From: Alphaproteobacteria bacterium
Lineage (GTDB): Bacteria; Pseudomonadota; Alphaproteobacteria; JAQWUY01
NCBI GenBank assembly: GCA_049615605.1
Contig: JBMZFW010000001.1
Coordinates: 1-63,436, forward strand
DNA: 63,436 nucleotides
Direction of reading: 5' to 3'
Shown: one piece after another, positions 32,703 to 63,436 of the stretch
Numbering within the stretch: the first letter of the stretch is position 1
Layout: every line of letters begins with the position of its first letter
Notes under the pieces: generated by a model
The model's database searches: none
Told to the model about the DNA's origin: nothing
What the model saw: only the letters and a program-made list of their open reading frames with translations
Translations under genes and position numbers: made by a program

Positions 32703-33308
32703 ATGCCAATATTACTATTATTTTTCATTTGGTTCATCGCTGAAATCGCTGGTTTTATATACATTGGCGGATACTTTGGTATCGGTGAAACAATCGTTGA
32801 AATAATCTTGTCGATTATAATCGGTTCTTGGATTATACGAAGGTCAATTGCTTCTGTGGGTAACATTGCATTAATTGCCAGTGTTGGTATTGGTTCGGTA
32901 ATAAGTAATGTTCTTGGCGGTATTTTACTTGTTATCCCTGGATTCCTTAGTGACTTTATGGGATTGTTATTATTACTTAACTTCCCTATTAATGTAATCT
33001 TATTAATTCTTGGTCTTGGTCGTAAACCAGACATCAATTCATTTATGCGCAACCGTATGGGTGGTATGGCTGGAATGGGCGGAATGGGGCAAAACCCATT
33101 TGGCGGTGGTCAAAACCCGTTTGCAGATATGCACAAACAACAAAACAATCAAGCGGGCGGGCAACCGAAAAACCCATTTGAAGGCAATCCAATTTTTGAA
33201 GAAATGCTTAAAAAGCAACAGCAAAACCAACAAATGAATAATGATACATCAGCCAAAGATACAATTATCGAAGGCGAAGTAATCAACAAAGACGATAAAG
33301 ATAAATAA
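32703..33308 (+). CDS. fxsA: FxsA-family membrane protein with a long Gly/Met/Gln/Asn-rich C-terminal tail
   Basis: Listed ORF, 201 aa. N-terminal FIAEIAGFIYIGGYFG signature. AAAGGGA RBS. Confidence 0.8.
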   Translation: MPILLLFFIWFIAEIAGFIYIGGYFGIGETIVEIILSIIIGSWIIRRSIASVGNIALIASVGIGSVISNVLGGILLVIPGFLSDFMGLLLLLNFPINVILLILGLGRKPDINSFMRNRMGGMAGMGGMGQNPFGGGQNPFADMHKQQNNQAGGQPKNPFEGNPIFEEMLKKQQQNQQMNNDTSAKDTIIEGEVINKDDKDK

Positions 33309-33312
33309 TCTT

Positions 33313-34350
33313 TTATGGGAAGTTTGGTTGTTGTTCTAAACCAGTTGTTTCTTCAAGTTCAAACATAATATTCATATTTTGAATTGCTTGACCAGACGAA
33401 CCTTTAACCAAGTTATCAATCGCACACATAACGATTGAACGGTTTGGAATACGATCTTCTTTCGCACCAATTACCGCAAGGTTTGAACCCTTTACCATAG
33501 AAGTCTTTGGCAGACCATCAATAAACCTTACAAATTTTTCACCTTTGTATGTATCAATCAATGCCTTTTCTAAGTCAGCGTGGCTTACGCCATCGTTTCT
33601 TTTGACATAGATTGTCACAAGTTCCCCACGGTTTAATGGGACAAGGTGTGGTGTAAAGTTTACAATAACATTACTACCAAATCTTTTTGATAATTCTTGT
33701 TCAATTTCTGGGGCGTGTCTATGACTTGCAACACCATAAGGGTTCATTTGTTCAGAAAGTTCACAGAATAAAGTACCCTGTTTTACCCCACGACCCGCAC
33801 CTGACACACCAGATTTTGCGTCAATAATAATATCTTCGCCAGAAATGATATTGTTTTTTGCAAGCGGAATTAATGATAATAATGTAGCCGTTGGATAACA
33901 ACCAGGACAAGCAACAACCCTTGCACCTTTTACATTATCCCTTGCGTGTTCAGTTAAACCATATACAGCTTCAGCTTGTACATCGGTTGCTGTATGAGCT
34001 CTGTCATACCATTGTTCATAAGTTTTTGTATCTTCAATACGAAAATCAGCCGATAAATCAACAACCTTAACATTGGTTGGGATTTGTTTAACCAAGTCTT
34101 GGCTATGCCCGTGTGGTAAACCACAGAACACAACATCACACTTTGAAAAGTCTGCATCTTCGTTGCTTGTTGTCTTTGGCAGGTTTAAATGAGAAAGGTG
34201 TGGATAAATATCCCCGTATTCCTTACCCGCATTTGAACCAGCCGTTAATACAGTGATTTCAGTGTTTGGGTGAACACTTAATAAACGAACCAAGTCCGCA
34301 CCTGTATAACCAGATGCACCCAAGATACCAACTTTAATCTTTTTAGACAT
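33313..34350 (-). CDS. argC: N-acetyl-gamma-glutamyl-phosphate reductase
   Basis: Listed ORF, 345 aa. GASGYTG fold and catalytic Cys context ACPGCYPT. Confidence 0.95.
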   Translation of the reverse strand: MSKKIKVGILGASGYTGADLVRLLSVHPNTEITVLTAGSNAGKEYGDIYPHLSHLNLPKTTSNEDADFSKCDVVFCGLPHGHSQDLVKQIPTNVKVVDLSADFRIEDTKTYEQWYDRAHTATDVQAEAVYGLTEHARDNVKGARVVACPGCYPTATLLSLIPLAKNNIISGEDIIIDAKSGVSGAGRGVKQGTLFCELSEQMNPYGVASHRHAPEIEQELSKRFGSNVIVNFTPHLVPLNRGELVTIYVKRNDGVSHADLEKALIDTYKGEKFVRFIDGLPKTSMVKGSNLAVIGAKEDRIPNRSIVMCAIDNLVKGSSGQAIQNMNIMFELEETTGLEQQPNFP

Positions 34351-34421
34351 AATATTTCCCTTAATCTTTTGTTAATTAAATTTAACACACAAATAAAAAA
34401 ATACAATTATTAAAAAAGTGC

Positions 34422-34476
34422 TTGACTTATAAATAGAACAGATGTAGAACATAGTATATAGAACAAAAACAGAACA
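34422..34476 (+). promoter_or_regulatory. Promoter overlaid by four phased (T/C)AGAACA direct repeats, i.e. two GAAC-N7-GAAC boxes
   Basis: The -35 is TTGACT at 34422-34427. After 17 nt comes TAGAAC at 34445-34450 as a putative -10. GAAC-N7-GAAC occurs at 34436-34450 and 34461-34475. The repeats start at 34434, 34445, 34459 and 34470. Confidence 0.55.
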
Positions 34477-34500
34477 TTAATATTTGAAAGGTAAGTTAAT

Positions 34501-34671
34501 ATGAAAATACGATATGAAGTAATTGGTCTAGTAATAATGTTTATTGCGGTGTTTTTAGCATCTGTGTCAATTGGTGTAATCATTGATGATATGGTTGTTG
34601 CCAGTATGCCTATTTTATTATTCTGGCTTTATGTAATGAACAATACTTTTAAAAATATGGAAGAGTTTTAA
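34501..34671 (+). CDS. Unannotated micro-ORF: 56-aa hydrophobic peptide with two predicted membrane segments
   Basis: ATG is 9 nt after GAAAGG. Translation: MKIRYEVIGLVIMFIAVFLASVSIGVIIDDMVVASMPILLFWLYVMNNTFKNMEEF. It falls below the ORF-track length cutoff. No family recognised. Confidence 0.45.
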   Translation: MKIRYEVIGLVIMFIAVFLASVSIGVIIDDMVVASMPILLFWLYVMNNTFKNMEEF

Positions 34672-34694
34672 TTTAAATAAAGGAGTCTATGGAT

Positions 34695-34784
34695 ATGAGT
34701 AAAATTTTCACAACACAAAATATTCACGAATTTAATACAGAACAAGGTGTGGTTATCCACTGTCCTTGGGTATTTGATGAATAA
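34695..34784 (+). CDS. Unannotated micro-ORF: 29-aa peptide (31 aa if started at ATG 34689)
   Basis: AAGGAG at 34680-34685 lies 9 nt before ATG 34695. Translation: MSKIFTTQNIHEFNTEQGVVIHCPWVFDE. No family recognised. Confidence 0.35.
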   Translation: MSKIFTTQNIHEFNTEQGVVIHCPWVFDE

Positions 34785-34824
34785 GGTTTTATTGCTATTA
34801 CCTTCAACAGCCCTTAATGGCAAT

Positions 34825-34864
34825 AAAAAAGGCGGTGTGTTTTAAAACACCCGCCTATTTATTT
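34825..34864. terminator. Bidirectional intrinsic terminator
   Basis: GGCGGTGTGTTTT / AAAACACCCGCC stem with one bulge. It is flanked by A6 upstream and TATTTATTT downstream, so a T-run follows on both strands. Confidence 0.7.
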
Positions 34865-34866
34865 AA

Positions 34867-34912: not shown

Positions 34913-34943
34913 GTTTTAATTCGGTTAGAATCAAAAAAGCCAA
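34913..34943. repeat. 31-nt terminator-associated module, copy 1
   Basis: GTTTTAATTCGGTTAGAATCAAAAAAGCCAA matches 41214-41244 at 28 of 31 positions. The three mismatches are contiguous. Confidence 0.7.
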
Positions 34944-34960
34944 CCCATTCGGGTTGGCTT
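34933..34960 (-). terminator. Intrinsic terminator after rpsI
   Basis: AGCCAACCC-ATTC-GGGTTGGCT stem. On the minus strand it is followed by T6. It lies 33 nt after the rpsI stop. Confidence 0.8.
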
Positions 34961-34992
34961 TTCTTTTTGGTGTAAACCAGTTAAAACGAATA

Positions 34993-35472
34993 TTAACGTT
35001 TTGAGAACTGGAATGAACGACGAGCTTTCGCGCGACCGTATTTCTTTCTTTCAACCACACGGGCGTCACGTGTAAGGAAACCACCTGATTTCAATACTGG
35101 ACGAAGTGTTGGTTCAAAGTTTACTAATGCTCTTGAAATACCGTGTTGGATTGCACCGGCTTGACCTGAAAGACCACCACCTTTTGCTGTACATACAACA
35201 TCAAATTGACCCGCTCTGTCAGATTTTTCAAATGGTTGGTTAAGAACCATTCTTAATACTGGGCGACCAAAGTATTTTTCAATTTCTTTGCCGTTTACGA
35301 TTACTTTACCAGAACCTGGCTTAATCCATACACGCGCAACAGATTCTTTACGACGACCCGTTGCATACGCACGACCCTGTTCGTCAAGTTTCTGTACCGC
35401 AGGAGTAGCAGTTTCAACAGCTTCTGATTTTACTTCGTTTAAGTCCGCTAATGTTTTTTTATCTTCTGTCAT
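34993..35472 (-). CDS. rpsI: 30S ribosomal protein S9
   Basis: Listed ORF, 159 aa. C-terminal ...[17 protein letters not shown]. Confidence 0.97.
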
Positions 35473-41310: not shown

Positions 41311-41823
41311 TTAGAATGGGATTTCATCGTCCAAATCGCTTATCGCATTATTATCGGCTGAACCCGCTGATGAAAATGCATTATCGCTTGTTTGGTTATT
41401 TGATGCGAACGAAGTACCGCCCGATTGTGCCTGTGATTGTGAATTATCATAACCACCGCCAACACTTTGTCTGCCACCTGCGCTATCAAGCATAGTAAGG
41501 CTTCCTTCAAAGTTTGTAAGGACAACTTCTGTTGTGTAAACATCTTGCCCTTGGTTATTTTGCCATTTGCGTGTTCTTAGTTGACCTTCAAGGTAAAGTT
41601 TTGAACCTTTATCAATATAACTTTCAATGATTTTAGTTAAACCACCGAATACAACAACACGGTGCCATTCAGTGCGTGTTTGGCGTTCGCCATTTTGGTC
41701 TTTCCAGCTGTCTGATGTTGCAACAGAAAAGCTTGCAACTTTATCCCCGCTTTGCGTGTTGCGGATTTCTGGCTTTGCACCAACGTTACCAACTAAAATT
41801 ACTTTATTTACACTGCCTGACAT
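41311..41823 (-). CDS. ssb: Single-stranded DNA-binding protein
   Basis: Listed ORF, 170 aa. OB-fold N-terminus, Gly/Gln/Ser-rich linker, C-terminal DDEIPF. Confidence 0.96.
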   Translation of the reverse strand: MSGSVNKVILVGNVGAKPEIRNTQSGDKVASFSVATSDSWKDQNGERQTRTEWHRVVVFGGLTKIIESYIDKGSKLYLEGQLRTRKWQNNQGQDVYTTEVVLTNFEGSLTMLDSAGGRQSVGGGYDNSQSQAQSGGTSFASNNQTSDNAFSSAGSADNNAISDLDDEIPF

Positions 41824-41996
41824 TATTTTTTCCTTACTTTCAAACTGTTATTATTAATATTATTTTTTGCAAATAAAACTTTAACAGGTTTTAACAAAAC
41901 TTTAAACAAAAAAATATATTTATTTTATCTTAACAACGACACATATATGTGGTACAATTTCCAATTCGTAATAATAAAAATAAAAGGCAAATAATA

Positions 41997-44819
41997 ATGA
42001 AAAACGATAAAATAGTAGTAACAGGCGCCAGAGAACACAATCTTAAAAATGTAAATGTCACAATTCCGCGTGATAAACTTGTTGTAATTACGGGACTTTC
42101 AGGTTCAGGTAAGTCATCACTTGCATTTGATACTATTTATGCGGATGGTCAACGCCGTTATGTGGAAAGCTTATCTGCATACGCGCGTCAATTCCTTGAA
42201 ATGATGGCAAAACCAGATGTGGACAGCATCGAAGGTTTATCCCCTGCTATTTCCATTGAACAAAAGACAACATCAAAAAATCCAAGATCAACCGTTGGTA
42301 CTGTTACGGAAATTTATGATTACTTACGCCTATTATTTGCCCGTGTTGGTATCCCATACAGCCCAACCACTGGTCAACCAATTGAAAGCATGTCAATTTC
42401 AAGTATCGTTGATAACATTCTTAACCTTGGCGAAGAAACAAAGTTAATGTTATTATCGCCAATTGTGCGTGGTCGCAAAGGCGAATACAAAAAAGAATTT
42501 GTTACATTACAACGCAAAGGCTTTGCCCGTGTAAAAATTGATGGCAATATTCACGAAATTGACGAAGTACCAGAACTGGATAAAAACATCAAACACACTA
42601 TTGAAGTTGTCGTTGACAGAATCATTGTTAAAGAAGAAGCAAAACAAAGAATTGCATCATCGGTTGAAACCGCACTTAATTTATCAGATGGTATTATAGT
42701 CGTTGAAGAAGCAAGTAATTCAAATCGTCGCCATATTTTTTCTTCAAAGTTTTCTTGCCCTGAAAGTGGATTTTCTATTGAAGAGATTGAACCAAGAATA
42801 TTTTCATTCAATTCACCATTTGGTGCGTGTACAGTTTGTGATGGCTTGGGTAAAAGCAAAGCATTCAGCCAAGATTTAATTGTGGAAGACGAAAACCTTT
42901 CATTATCAGAAGGTGCAATTACCCCATGGGAAAGAAGTCAAAATAAATTATATCACCAAACATTGGTTTCAATTGCCAATCATTATGATGTTGATATGAC
43001 AACACCGTGGGAATTTCTTGATGATAAATTTAAATCAACAATTCTGTATGGTACAAAGGACACTATTAAGTTTGATTATGACGATGGGATTAAATCATTT
43101 TCAACGGAAAAACCTTTTGAAGGTGTAATTCCAAATATGGAAAGAAAATACCGTGAAGCCAACCAAGCAACAAAAGAAGACCTTGAAAAATATCAAGACG
43201 AAGTTAAATGTAGTGAATGTTCTGGTCACCGCTTAAAACTGGAATCTTTAAGTGTTAAGATTGCCAGTTTACATATTGGTGAAGTAAGTTCAATGTCAAT
43301 TTCAAAAGCTTTAAAATGGTTCAAAGAATTACCAGAAAACCTTAGCAAGCAACAAAACCTTATTGGTGAAAAAATTATTAAAGAAATAAGCGACAGATTA
43401 CAATTCCTTGACAATGTGGGGTTAAGTTATCTTTCACTTTCAAGGAAATCAGGGACATTATCTGGTGGTGAAAGCCAACGAATAAGGCTTGCCAGTCAAA
43501 TTGGTTCTGGCTTAACCGGTGTGTTATATGTACTTGATGAACCAAGCATTGGTCTGCACCAAAGGGATAATGACAAATTACTTGATACATTAAAGACATT
43601 GCGTGACCAAGGAAACACTGTCCTAGTCGTGGAACACGATGAAGATGCAATTAAATCAGCCGACTATGTTATTGATATTGGTCCAGGTGCTGGTGTTAAT
43701 GGTGGTAAAGTTATTGCCCAAGGTTCACTTGATAAAATAATGAAAGCCAAAGACAGTATCACCGCACAATACTTATCAGGTGAAAAGAAAATTGAAGTAC
43801 CAAAGAAACGCCGTAAAGGTAATGGTAAATTTATTGAATTAAAAGGTGCAAGACAAAACAACTTAAAAAATGTTGATTTAAAAATTCCACTTGGAACATT
43901 TACTTGTATCACGGGGGTTTCTGGTTCGGGTAAATCAACATTAACCCTTGATACATTAAAATCAATCCTTAGCCGTGATTTAATGGGGGCAAAAACAACC
44001 CCTGGTGAATACGATTCAATTTCGGGCGTGCATCACCTTGATAAGATTATTGATATTGACCAATCACCAATTGGACGAACACCAAGATCAAACCCAGCAA
44101 CATATACGGGTGCATTTACACATATTCGTGATTGGTTTACCGCCCTGCCTGAATCAAAGGCACGCGGTTATCAATCGGGACGATTTTCATTCAACGCCAA
44201 AGGTGGTCGTTGTGAAGGTTGCCAAGGTGATGGTGTAATTAAAATTGAAATGCACTTTTTACCAGATGTGTATGTGGAATGCGACCAATGTAAAGGTAAA
44301 CGATATAACCGTGAAACATTGGAAATTCTAAACAAAGGTAAAAATATTTCTGATGTACTAGATATGACAATTGATGAGGCAGAAGAATTCTTTAACGCAA
44401 TTCCAACAATTAATGAAAAGATGAAAACTTTACAAGAAGTTGGTCTTGGTTATATTAAAGTTGGGCAAAAGGCAACAACCCTTTCCGGTGGTGAAGCACA
44501 AAGAATTAAGCTATCCAAAGAATTATCAAGACGCGCAACTGGTCGTACAATGTATATTCTTGATGAACCAACAACTGGTTTACACTTTGAAGATGTAAAG
44601 AATTTATTAAAAGTACTTCACGCATTGGTTGAAAACGGAAATACTGTTGTGGTTATTGAACACAACCTTGATGTTATTAAAACCGCTGACTGGATTGTTG
44701 ATATTGGTCCAGATGGTGGCGATAAAGGTGGCGAAATAATGGGAAGCGGTGTTCCAGAAGATATAGTTAAAATTGACAAATCATTTACCGCTAAGTATTT
44801 GAAAGAGTATTTAAAATAA
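41997..44819 (+). CDS. uvrA: Excinuclease ABC subunit A
   Basis: Listed ORF 41949..44819. ATG 41997 ([19 protein letters not shown]...) is the canonical N-terminus and lies 9 nt after AAGG. Two ABC ATPase modules and zinc-finger cysteines. Confidence 0.96.
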
Positions 44820-46419: not shown

Positions 46420-47049
46420 TTAATTAATAATGTTATAAACATCAATTAATGATGTATAAAATGGCGGTAATGTTTCATACAACAACCACCCACCAAGAAC
46501 AATATTTAACATTCGCAAGCGTTTTGGTGTTGATAAGAAACCTTTGAAATAATAAGGAACTGCATTCCATATTAAACAAGGGATAGTTGACACAACATAA
46601 AGCCACCAAAATGCGGTTGCCTGTGGCAATAATGGTTCATTCGGTATAAGAAACGCACTTGCAACGCCGATGGAAATTGCCCACGCCTTACCATTTATAA
46701 TTTGCAATCCAACCGCACCCCAAAAACCAATATATTTTAATTTTTTATCTGAATTAATATCTGGTTTACTTAATAATATTTTAACCCCAATATATACCAA
46801 CAACAAGCCACCAAACAGACGGAAGTATGGTTCAAAACCATATTCCATTATTGGCTTTAACAAGAACACAACCCCCGCACCCATTAATGGCCAACCAACC
46901 AATACACCAAGACGGTATATTAATGCTTTTTTAAGACCATAATTAAGTGTAAATAAAAATGATAAGATATTATTAAGACCAGGTGTAATATGCATAATTA
47001 ATGAAAACATTAATGCAGAATAAAATACATTCCAGTTAATTAATTCCAT
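46420..47049 (-). CDS. LysE/RhtB-family amino-acid exporter
   Basis: Listed ORF, 209 aa. Multi-pass membrane protein with the N-terminal ITPGLNN-type motif. Confidence 0.8.
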   Translation of the reverse strand: MELINWNVFYSALMFSLIMHITPGLNNILSFLFTLNYGLKKALIYRLGVLVGWPLMGAGVVFLLKPIMEYGFEPYFRLFGGLLLVYIGVKILLSKPDINSDKKLKYIGFWGAVGLQIINGKAWAISIGVASAFLIPNEPLLPQATAFWWLYVVSTIPCLIWNAVPYYFKGFLSTPKRLRMLNIVLGGWLLYETLPPFYTSLIDVYNIIN

Positions 47050-62492: not shown

Positions 62493-63436
62493 ATGAAAAA
62501 AGAAACAAAAATTATTCACCCATCAAATTACAAGGGCTGTAAAAGTCAATATGGTTCGGTTAACCCACCTATTGTTCGTGCTTCAACTGTTGCACACAAG
62601 GATTTCAATGAAATTCAAAATCCAGGCGAAGATAGGGTTATATATGGTCGTTATGGTCTTGAACCTGCTGGCACATTAAAAAGGGCTATTGCTGAATTGG
62701 AAGGTGCATATAATACAATCTTAACATCTTGTGGTTTACAAGCTGTTACATTAGGTGTTTTTTCAGCTGTTAAAGCTGGTGACCATGTTATTATTGCCGA
62801 TGGTGTATATGTTCCATCACAAAAACTAGGTAAAGAATTATTACCTGACTTTGGTGTGGAAGTTTCATTCTTTGATGCAATGAAGCCTGAAAGCCTAAAT
62901 GATTTAATCAAAGACAATACAGTTGCTGTATTCTTTGAAGTACCATCATCTGGTACTATGGAATTTCCAAACATTGAAGAAATTATTAACATTACCAAGA
63001 AGCACAATATTTTATCAATCGTTGATAATACTTGGGGTGCTGGCGGTTATTTAGTTAAACCAATGGATTATGGCGTTGATATTTCAATTCAATCATTAAC
63101 AAAGTACCCTTGCGGACATTCAGATGTGTTAATGGGTGCAATATCTGTGCGTGAAAAAGAATTATGGGAAAAAGTTAATCATAAGGCATCATTATTTGGT
63201 TCAGCCGTATCACCTGATGATATTTATCTGCTACTGCGTGGATTAAAGACTATGCCAACGCGACTTAACCAACACCACGATAATGCGATCAAAGTTGCCA
63301 AATTCTTAAAAGACCACGACAAAGTTGATGAAGTATTCTGTCCCGCACTTGAAACTTCACCAGGTCATGAAAACTGGAAAAAATATTGCACCAAAACAAA
63401 TGGATTATTTTCATTCACTTTCAAAGAAAACTATGG
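62493..63436 (+). CDS. Cystathionine beta-lyase-like Cys/Met-metabolism PLP enzyme; 3' end outside the window
   Basis: Not in the ORF track because there is no stop in the window. Frame is open from ATG 62493 (MKKETKIIHPSNYKG...) to the window end. PLP-lysine context SLTKYPCGHSDVLMG resembles MetC. Confidence 0.82.
   Translation, partial: MKKETKIIHPSNYKGCKSQYGSVNPPIVRASTVAHKDFNEIQNPGEDRVIYGRYGLEPAGTLKRAIAELEGAYNTILTSCGLQAVTLGVFSAVKAGDHVIIADGVYVPSQKLGKELLPDFGVEVSFFDAMKPESLNDLIKDNTVAVFFEVPSSGTMEFPNIEEIINITKKHNILSIVDNTWGAGGYLVKPMDYGVDISIQSLTKYPCGHSDVLMGAISVREKELWEKVNHKASLFGSAVSPDDIYLLLRGLKTMPTRLNQHHDNAIKVAKFLKDHDKVDEVFCPALETSPGHENWKKYCTKTNGLFSFTFKENY

Follow-up and report, generated by a model that had tools for sequence, protein, structure and literature searches.

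SidA is a 29 amino acid (aa) membrane protein that is induced in the SOS response and inhibits cell division, and DidA is a second small membrane inhibitor of 71 aa (PMC4211646). DidA, YneA, SosA, DivS, and ChiZ are all small, membrane-anchored and induced by DNA damage, and they act on the late divisome and not on FtsZ (PMC4211646, PMC13396833, bioRxiv 10.1101/364299). All of these proteins are single-pass, several of them with extracytoplasmic domains (e.g., LysM), and DidA is not LexA-controlled. TisB and DinQ of E. coli are tiny hydrophobic peptides of the inner membrane that stand under LexA control (PMC3567139). They consist of single helices of 27–29 aa and are controlled by antisense small RNAs (sRNAs) and by translationally inert, structured primary transcripts. 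The LexA direct repeat of Caulobacter and other alphaproteobacteria is GTTC-N7-GTTC, which reads GAAC-N7-GAAC on the other strand (PMC9578287, PMC12700426, PMC3323433). In the present work, we have analysed a stretch of 63,436 nucleotides (nt) of alphaproteobacterial DNA (contig JBMZFW010000001.1, positions 1–63,436; hereafter the window), in which the 642-base pair (bp) gap between the genes argC and rpsI holds two very small open reading frames (ORFs), ORF1 and ORF2, behind a promoter with two GAAC repeats. We regard these ORFs as an operon of two micro-protein genes, of which the first is genuine and the second probable. On balance, we consider it somewhat probable that this operon is repressed by LexA and that its hairpin-shaped product is a damage-induced effector, by analogy most likely a SidA-like division inhibitor.

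The ORF1 protein would resemble SidA in being a tiny inner-membrane protein of an alphaproteobacterium, with a LexA-type box of the GTTC/GAAC-N7 form and a simple leader (PMC4211646, PMC12700426, PMC9578287), and tight repression is expected to be necessary for both. It differs in that SidA has one transmembrane helix and 29 aa, whereas ORF1 encodes a predicted two-helix hairpin of 56 aa (53–75 aa within its family) with a P-x3-F-W motif of its own, and in that some ORF1 lineages have a second, co-transcribed peptide (ORF2). With DidA, YneA, SosA, DivS, and ChiZ it would share a small size, a membrane anchor, induction by damage and a late-divisome target, though not their single-pass build, and ORF1 matched none of the models for these proteins in Pfam or NCBIfam. 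Similarly, LexA control, very small size and a hydrophobic character would be common to ORF1, TisB and DinQ, whereas the ORF1 leader is unstructured and shows no sRNA signature (Rfam, fold). Membership of ORF1 in the SidA, TisB or DinQ families was considered and is ruled out by its two helices and 56 aa, as against one helix and 27–29 aa.

The coding status of the two ORFs was assessed by comparison with related DNA. At the G+C content of the window (∼36%), 56 codons are expected to remain open by chance with a probability of ∼0.017, and 29 codons with one of ∼0.12, and the window's ORF list is rich in similar short frames; openness alone is therefore insufficient, and both ORFs stand above chance because they are conserved in relatives. 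When ORF1 was the single query, a word-indexed search returned only ORF1 itself from 5.8 billion proteins, and two Logan contigs (L071 and L072) that are 100% identical to the window provide no independent evidence. Independent relatives were reached via argC homologues and their contigs; a genome-contig scan with argC gave only relatives of ≤54% identity. The closest relative, the TARA scaffold L073 (argC 82% identical), likewise has the pair of small genes in its rpsI-argC gap, and its ORF1 protein of 58 aa is 51% identical to that of the window by BLASTP (53% over 55 aligned codons). L083, likewise from TARA, carries both ORFs as well. From 1.84 billion representative proteins, a search at full sensitivity identified a 69 aa homologue of ORF1 (P0123), and the family obtained by profile search comprises only 11 members in all among 5.8 billion proteins, every one of them at the same locus of a related, low-GC marine alphaproteobacterial contig. 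We distinguish four sub-lineages of ORF1, viz. window/L073/L083, L080–82, L076/L084, and L074/L085. In the L080–82 sub-lineage, whose L080-type contigs are abundant in JGI estuarine samples, ORF1 lies downstream of fxsA and argC is absent there, whereas the proteins of L076 and L084 have 53 aa and those of L074 and L085 have 75–83 aa. The latter two probably belong to the family, as judged from their argC-adjacent position, an IP(V/I)IIFW motif and weak pairwise scores.

Frame 1 of ORF1 is open in all 8 of the DNA sequences compared, which represent the four sub-lineages, while the other sense frames contain 1–9 stops. Substitutions between the window and L073 fall least often on the second codon position (23, 11 and 28 at the three positions, respectively). 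The ratio of nonsynonymous to synonymous substitution rates (dN/dS; Nei-Gojobori) is 0.19–0.37 for ORF1, compared with 0.08–0.11 for argC, and the excess of synonymous changes is significant in three comparisons (Fisher p 5e-5 to 3e-4). The sequence comparisons thus establish ORF1 as a genuine protein-coding gene under purifying selection. To judge from its distribution, the ORF1 family is new and lineage-restricted, all its members belonging to a single clade of low-GC marine alphaproteobacteria.

The proteins of this family share a common layout, viz. a short and often basic N-terminus, a hydrophobic helix of ∼22 residues, a polar turn of 2–3 residues (DD, DN, KN or GT), a second hydrophobic stretch and a C-terminal tail of 8–12 residues that is polar and mostly acidic. 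In the window protein, the N-terminus is basic, the turn (DD/DN) and the tail are acidic, and the second helix carries the P-x3-F-W motif, of which F41 and W42 never vary in the family and P37 hardly does. The AlphaFold2 model based on the 11-sequence alignment is a helical hairpin (H2–28, H31–34, H36–54) with a mean predicted local distance difference test (pLDDT) score of 87, and the two hydrophobic stretches noticed in the original prediction correspond to its two helices. The charge distribution suggests a topology with both termini inside the cell. Neither ORF1 nor ORF2 had a family match in Pfam, NCBIfam, PHROGs, PADLOC, the PDB sequences or Foldseek-PDB; PHROGs gave nothing at E < 0.02, and the sole PADLOC match was to a four-transmembrane effector at E = 0.029. 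The prediction that no recognised family would be found for either peptide thus agrees with these searches and with Rfam.

The second gene, ORF2, could begin at either of two ATG codons, at 34689 (31 aa) or at 34695 (29 aa), and the AAGGAG sequence stands 3 nt from the former and 9 nt from the latter. The 29 aa form is likely the product because the homologues align from 34695. These homologues, in L073 and L083, share with it a conserved core, I[FY]T[TA]QNIHE.N...GV..H.PWVF., and the alignment of the three sequences has 16 invariant columns (I-T-QNIHE-N-GV-H-PWVF). The protein of L073 is longer (34 aa), the difference being a clean five-codon in-frame block, and the Shine-Dalgarno sequence is kept in all three. 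The numbers of substitutions by codon position (7, 4 and 10) favour the sense frame. We conclude from these sequence features that ORF2 is probably protein-coding; two points weigh against this, viz. the antisense frame is also open, and dN/dS is 0.26–0.60 with p = 0.013–0.28, which for three sequences is statistically weak. An AlphaFold model of ORF2 alone shows three short strands with a weak pLDDT of 70. By tblastn, ORF2 is absent from the other three ORF1 sub-lineages, and neither the JGI metagenome contigs nor IMG/VR yielded a relative when searched with the ORF2 alignment. Because ORF2 is present only in the window, L073 and L083, it is best regarded as an accessory and not as an obligatory partner of ORF1; the suggestion that it acts as a partner or modulator is weakened to that extent, three of the four sub-lineages being without it. 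In L083, the final codons of ORF1 (ATG GAG GAA TTT, encoding MEEF; L083:1249–1267) supply the GGAGGA Shine-Dalgarno sequence of ORF2, and the ORF1 stop is separated from the ORF2 start by 1 nt, an arrangement that points to translational coupling of the two genes in that lineage.

The repeat-bearing promoter and the terminators enclose no cargo other than ORF1 and ORF2, as the original prediction had proposed from the sequence, and conservation now bears this out, with 11 family members for ORF1, homologues of ORF2 in two relatives, and frame and Shine-Dalgarno sequence retained. The ribosome-binding sites that it had described, GAAAGG 9 nt before the ORF1 start and AAGGAG 9 nt before the ATG at 34695, were found again on re-reading, and the strong terminator that it placed after both ORFs corresponds to two hairpins 3′ of ORF2. 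Its description of the ORFs as unannotated holds for the ORF track that was used, which omitted them, and fails for public gene calls, which already contain both.

The promoter region of the operon is the sole conserved non-coding sequence of the intergenic region. The two LexA-type boxes form a 23-nt direct repeat with a spacing of 25 nt, and the block that contains them aligns across the four sub-lineages as CTTGACTT...AGAACA....TAGAACAT...AGAACAAAA..AGAACA. It is 86% identical between lineages although synonymous sites are saturated (dS ∼1.6), whereas the adjoining 70-nt spacer towards argC, which is A/T-rich, has 41 of 70 positions identical, compared with 38.7 ± 2.9 for shuffled sequences. 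The promoter contains two exact GAAC-N7-GAAC sites against 1.1 expected across the whole window, and in 107 kb of DNA from relatives exact matches occur only at ORF1 promoters. The remaining matches in the window, exact or near, fall within coding sequence (serS, 51701; tatA, 54104) and were taken as chance. The 3′ half of box 1, TAGAAC (34445–34450), starts 17 nt after the -35 hexamer and fits the Caulobacter-type -10 consensus; it is likely the -10 element of the ORF1 promoter, and a simple sigma-70 scan of the window did not flag it as such. With TAGAAC read as the -10, box 1 would lie over the -10 and box 2 over the first transcribed bases, which is a classical repressor arrangement. The leader of ORF1 is unstructured (-0.3 kcal/mol, no better than shuffles). 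From their match to the published alphaproteobacterial box we infer that the GAAC repeats are putative LexA operators.

These observations suggest a working model. In undamaged cells LexA would hold the operon tightly off via the two operators, and DNA damage would lead to RecA-stimulated cleavage of LexA and thereby turn the operon on. The unstructured leader and good Shine-Dalgarno sequence would allow immediate translation, and the ORF1 protein would then act in the inner membrane on a membrane partner, most likely by binding a late divisome component and delaying division as SidA does, with ORF2 as a lineage-specific, translationally linked accessory. A specific protein partner is favoured over a generic pore because of the conserved helix-2 motif, and inhibition of division is favoured because of this motif and because the sRNA or structured-leader control typical of TisB and DinQ is missing. 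A role of ORF1 as a division inhibitor, or equally as a toxin, is proposed purely by analogy.

Control of the operon by the SOS response, which the original prediction had assumed, is in our estimate rather probable, and ORF1 is best read as a small membrane protein that is induced in the SOS response, because the repeats match the LexA box and are conserved. The operator resembles those of other alphaproteobacteria in its exact tetranucleotide repeats, its N7 spacing, its presence in two copies and its overlap with the core promoter; it differs in that its sites are predicted ones and in the following respects, which weigh against LexA control. In studied alphaproteobacteria ssb and uvrA are SOS genes, and the window contains them as a divergent pair (ssb, 41311–41823; uvrA, 41949–44819), yet their intergenic region (41824–41948) has no GAAC-N7-GAAC within 1 mismatch. 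Either a reduced SOS regulon in this organism or another control of both genes would account for this. The same region has three TTTAAC-like repeats ∼10–12 nt apart. Of what defines a LexA regulon, the window shows the direct repeat in the ORF1 promoter, at two exact sites; lexA and recA lie outside it, and its canonical SOS genes are not boxed. Further, box 2 of L080 and the single box of L074 and L085 have N6 and not N7 spacing. Two other points count against the wider proposal: the two-helix build of ORF1 is unlike that of every characterised SOS division inhibitor, and dN/dS of ORF1 exceeds 1 in the close pair L076/L084, on only 7 substitutions. Both the unboxed ssb-uvrA pair and the N6 spacing would suit an alternative in which the GAAC repeats are recognised by some regulator that is not LexA, or are mere promoter elements, and ORF1 is unrelated to DNA damage. 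Many bacterial small membrane proteins regulate transporters or kinases, and ORF1 could in that case serve a membrane complex, e.g., as an accessory subunit or as a regulator. We consider both this alternative and its exemplary role unlikely, since the exact alphaproteobacterial LexA repeat occurs twice with 11-bp phasing, the repeats sit over the -10 and +1 and are conserved amid randomised flanks, in high-GC contigs, one of them with an alphaproteobacteria-like rpsB, small hydrophobic ORFs follow dual boxes of the same syntax, and the neighbours of ORF1 are argC, rpsI or nusG and include no conserved membrane complex.

If LexA control of the same genes is accepted, ORF1 might instead be a membrane-depolarising toxin like TisB or DinQ, leading to arrested growth or to persistence, with ORF2 perhaps moderating it. 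DinQ is itself an SOS-regulated toxic membrane peptide (PMC3567139), the product is of the small, hydrophobic SOS type and the dual operators imply that leakiness would be harmful. This reading appears improbable because the locus lacks the hallmarks of type I systems (its leader is short and unstructured, its Shine-Dalgarno sequence is open, and there is no sRNA or Rfam match), because no toxin family matches at E ≤ 10 in Pfam or NCBIfam, because the P-x3-F-W motif and two-helix hairpin are unlike single amphipathic-helix toxins, and because the absence of ORF2 from most lineages leaves no required antidote. Far less probable still is an origin of ORF1 as a mobile or phage remnant, be it as a holin-like protein of class II or as the immunity partner of a small bacteriocin, for which ORF2 would code. 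Double LexA boxes do occur in certain SOS-controlled bacteriocin operons, ORF1 has two helices and a charged C-terminus, and inverted repeats bracket the gene pair in L073 and L083. The window, however, has no such repeats, and in L073 and L083 they fall within the stretch from operator to gene, which gives them the look of an insertion of a repetitive extragenic palindromic (REP) element; moreover, no PHROGs or PADLOC family was found, the IMG/VR scan with ORF2 was empty, no lysin, export or integrase gene lies near the housekeeping neighbours, synteny is kept in lineages whose argC genes are only 72–82% identical, and most lineages have ORF1 without ORF2. The microcin-immunity, holin and type I toxin-antitoxin models were accordingly rejected for this module. 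It is scarcely credible that both ORFs are chance frames in AT-rich DNA, with only the promoter or a non-coding RNA functional: short ORFs do abound in a window of 36% GC, and ORF2 has only 29 codons and an open antisense frame, but the frame, motif and Shine-Dalgarno sequence of ORF1 are conserved with dN/dS significantly below 1, which largely refutes this reading for ORF1, and ORF2 has its 16 invariant columns, in-frame indels and conserved Shine-Dalgarno sequence. A non-coding RNA is further opposed by the lack of an Rfam family and of stable structure in the leader. A LexA-repressed operon with a membrane hairpin effector thus remains our preferred reading, and its elements are summarized in Table 1.

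Table 1. Elements of the micro-protein operon and its flanking genes in the window, and comparable dual-box loci on other contigs.
Feature	Position	Strand	Basis and remarks
argC (N-acetyl-gamma-glutamyl-phosphate reductase)	33313..34350	-	ORF list and Pfam domains on homologues; divergent left neighbour, outside the module
Promoter/operator block (-35, box 1, box 2)	34421..34476	+	48/56 identical to L073 and L083
-35 hexamer TTGACT	34422..34427	+	Sequence; TTGACT or TTGCGT in L073, L083, L080, L076, L084
LexA-type box 1 (putative), GAACAGATGTAGAAC	34436..34450	+	Exact GAAC-N7-GAAC; kept in every dual-box sub-lineage
LexA-type box 2 (putative), GAACAAAAACAGAAC	34461..34475	+	Exact GAAC-N7-GAAC; conserved; just 3′ of the predicted transcription start
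Shine-Dalgarno sequence of ORF1, GAAAGG	34486..34491	+	9 nt before ATG
ORF1, 56 aa two-helix membrane hairpin protein (predicted)	34501..34671	+	Homologues, dN/dS, AlphaFold
Shine-Dalgarno sequence of ORF2, AAGGAG	34680..34685	+	Sequence; kept in L073 and L083
ORF2, 29 aa soluble peptide (probable)	34695..34784	+	Homologues in L073 and L083 only, dN/dS, weak model
Terminator region of the ORF1-ORF2 transcript: hairpins 34787–34828 and 34830–34856, U-rich tail UAUUUAUUU	34787..34866	+	Fold
GC-rich 12-bp hairpin flanked by T-runs; bidirectional terminator, mainly for rpsI	34935..34962	.	Terminator scan
rpsI	34993..35472	-	Pfam Ribosomal_S9; convergent right neighbour, outside the module; rplM comes next
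CTTGAC, two GAAC-N7-GAAC boxes, Shine-Dalgarno sequence, small hydrophobic ORF	L097:2111-2254		
CTTGAC, two GAAC-N7-GAAC boxes, Shine-Dalgarno sequence, small hydrophobic ORF	L140:670-940		
CTTGAC, two GAAC-N7-GAAC boxes, Shine-Dalgarno sequence, small hydrophobic ORF	L151:1963-2329	-	

The terminator region of the operon has a folding energy of -37.4 kcal/mol (z = -5.1 vs. shuffles), and a simple terminator scan flags its second hairpin on the minus strand. The only Rfam matches were sub-threshold and lay over the terminator hairpins 3′ of ORF2. The inverted repeat that brackets ORF1 and ORF2 is 55 nt long and 89% complementary in L073 (4409–4463 and 4801–4855) and 33 nt long and 85% complementary in L083 (1024–1056 and 1357–1389). 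One copy lies between the GAAC operator and the Shine-Dalgarno sequence and the other after ORF2, and the core of the repeat, GCGGTTGCAACCGC, recurs in the rpsI-argC gap of L075. The repeat looks like an element of the REP type, or of the miniature inverted-repeat transposable element (MITE) type, of that lineage, and it could pair both ends of the mRNA.

The proteins of the window that were tested are singletons at 90% identity clustering, and the nearest named relatives of its argC are Alphaproteobacteria of ∼60% identity, including Coralliovum, Sneathiella, and Curvivirga. Among the relatives, the rpsI-argC neighbourhood is a hot spot of insertion: a 269 aa ORF with a sub-threshold match to a PDDEXK nuclease domain is found in L076 (3586–4395), an unrelated 167 aa ORF in L084 (4233–4736), and a 549 aa protein with further genes in L074 (310–4601), and in L075 and L077 a GmrSD-type restriction gene lies beside rplM, upstream of it. 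The FxsA protein has 186–207 aa in carriers of ORF1 (window, 32703–33308; L073; L080) and only 142–148 aa, with faint Pfam matches, in L075 (6156–6584) and L077 (6685–7131), which lack ORF1. The correlation is imperfect, since L074 has ORF1 and yet a short FxsA (137 aa), and it may be coincidental. Two further ORFs of the window, at 46420–47049 (209 aa) and 62651–63007 (118 aa), have no Pfam match.

The arrangement of dual LexA-type boxes before a small hydrophobic ORF was also sought elsewhere, by a scan of metagenome contigs for two GAACA-N6-GAACA boxes that are 6–12 nt apart. The matches listed were dominated by 11-bp tandem repeats, and among them three were promoter-like, on contigs of 60–65% GC (L097, L140, and L151). 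The small hydrophobic ORFs 3′ of these boxes have 28 aa (MRIMRQILEGAAFGTLMAIILVGQHLLQ), 65 aa and 101 aa, respectively, none of them has a Pfam match, and an alphaproteobacteria-like rpsB is present on L151. We regard the three as candidate SOS micro-proteins of other alphaproteobacteria, and they suggest, as a lead, that dual LexA-type boxes before membrane micro-ORFs recur in this class. Such recurrence would fit a repeated evolution of SidA-like functions. In the broadest form of the proposal, which we regard as possible though doubtful, ORF1 would found a new class of SOS effectors, viz. two-helix membrane hairpins that arrest division or otherwise reprogram the envelope in a clade of uncultured marine alphaproteobacteria. 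ORF2 would serve some of the lineages as a soluble modulator, and the combination of dual LexA boxes with a hydrophobic micro-ORF would be a recurrent alphaproteobacterial syntax.

The SOS division inhibitors of different bacterial groups are non-homologous and too small for similarity searches, and little is hence known of them beyond model organisms. In the present case, conservation of the operator leads to a micro-protein family, itself conserved, in marine alphaproteobacteria that are abundant but uncultured. This family is a candidate for heterologous expression, and dual LexA boxes combined with a hydrophobic micro-ORF provide a search rule that has given three further candidates in unrelated contigs. 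Should the operator not be that of LexA, the locus would still define a new, tightly regulated family of membrane micro-proteins. If the proposal is true, the dual-box syntax could reveal, across the class, non-homologous SOS division inhibitors that would otherwise be unfindable.

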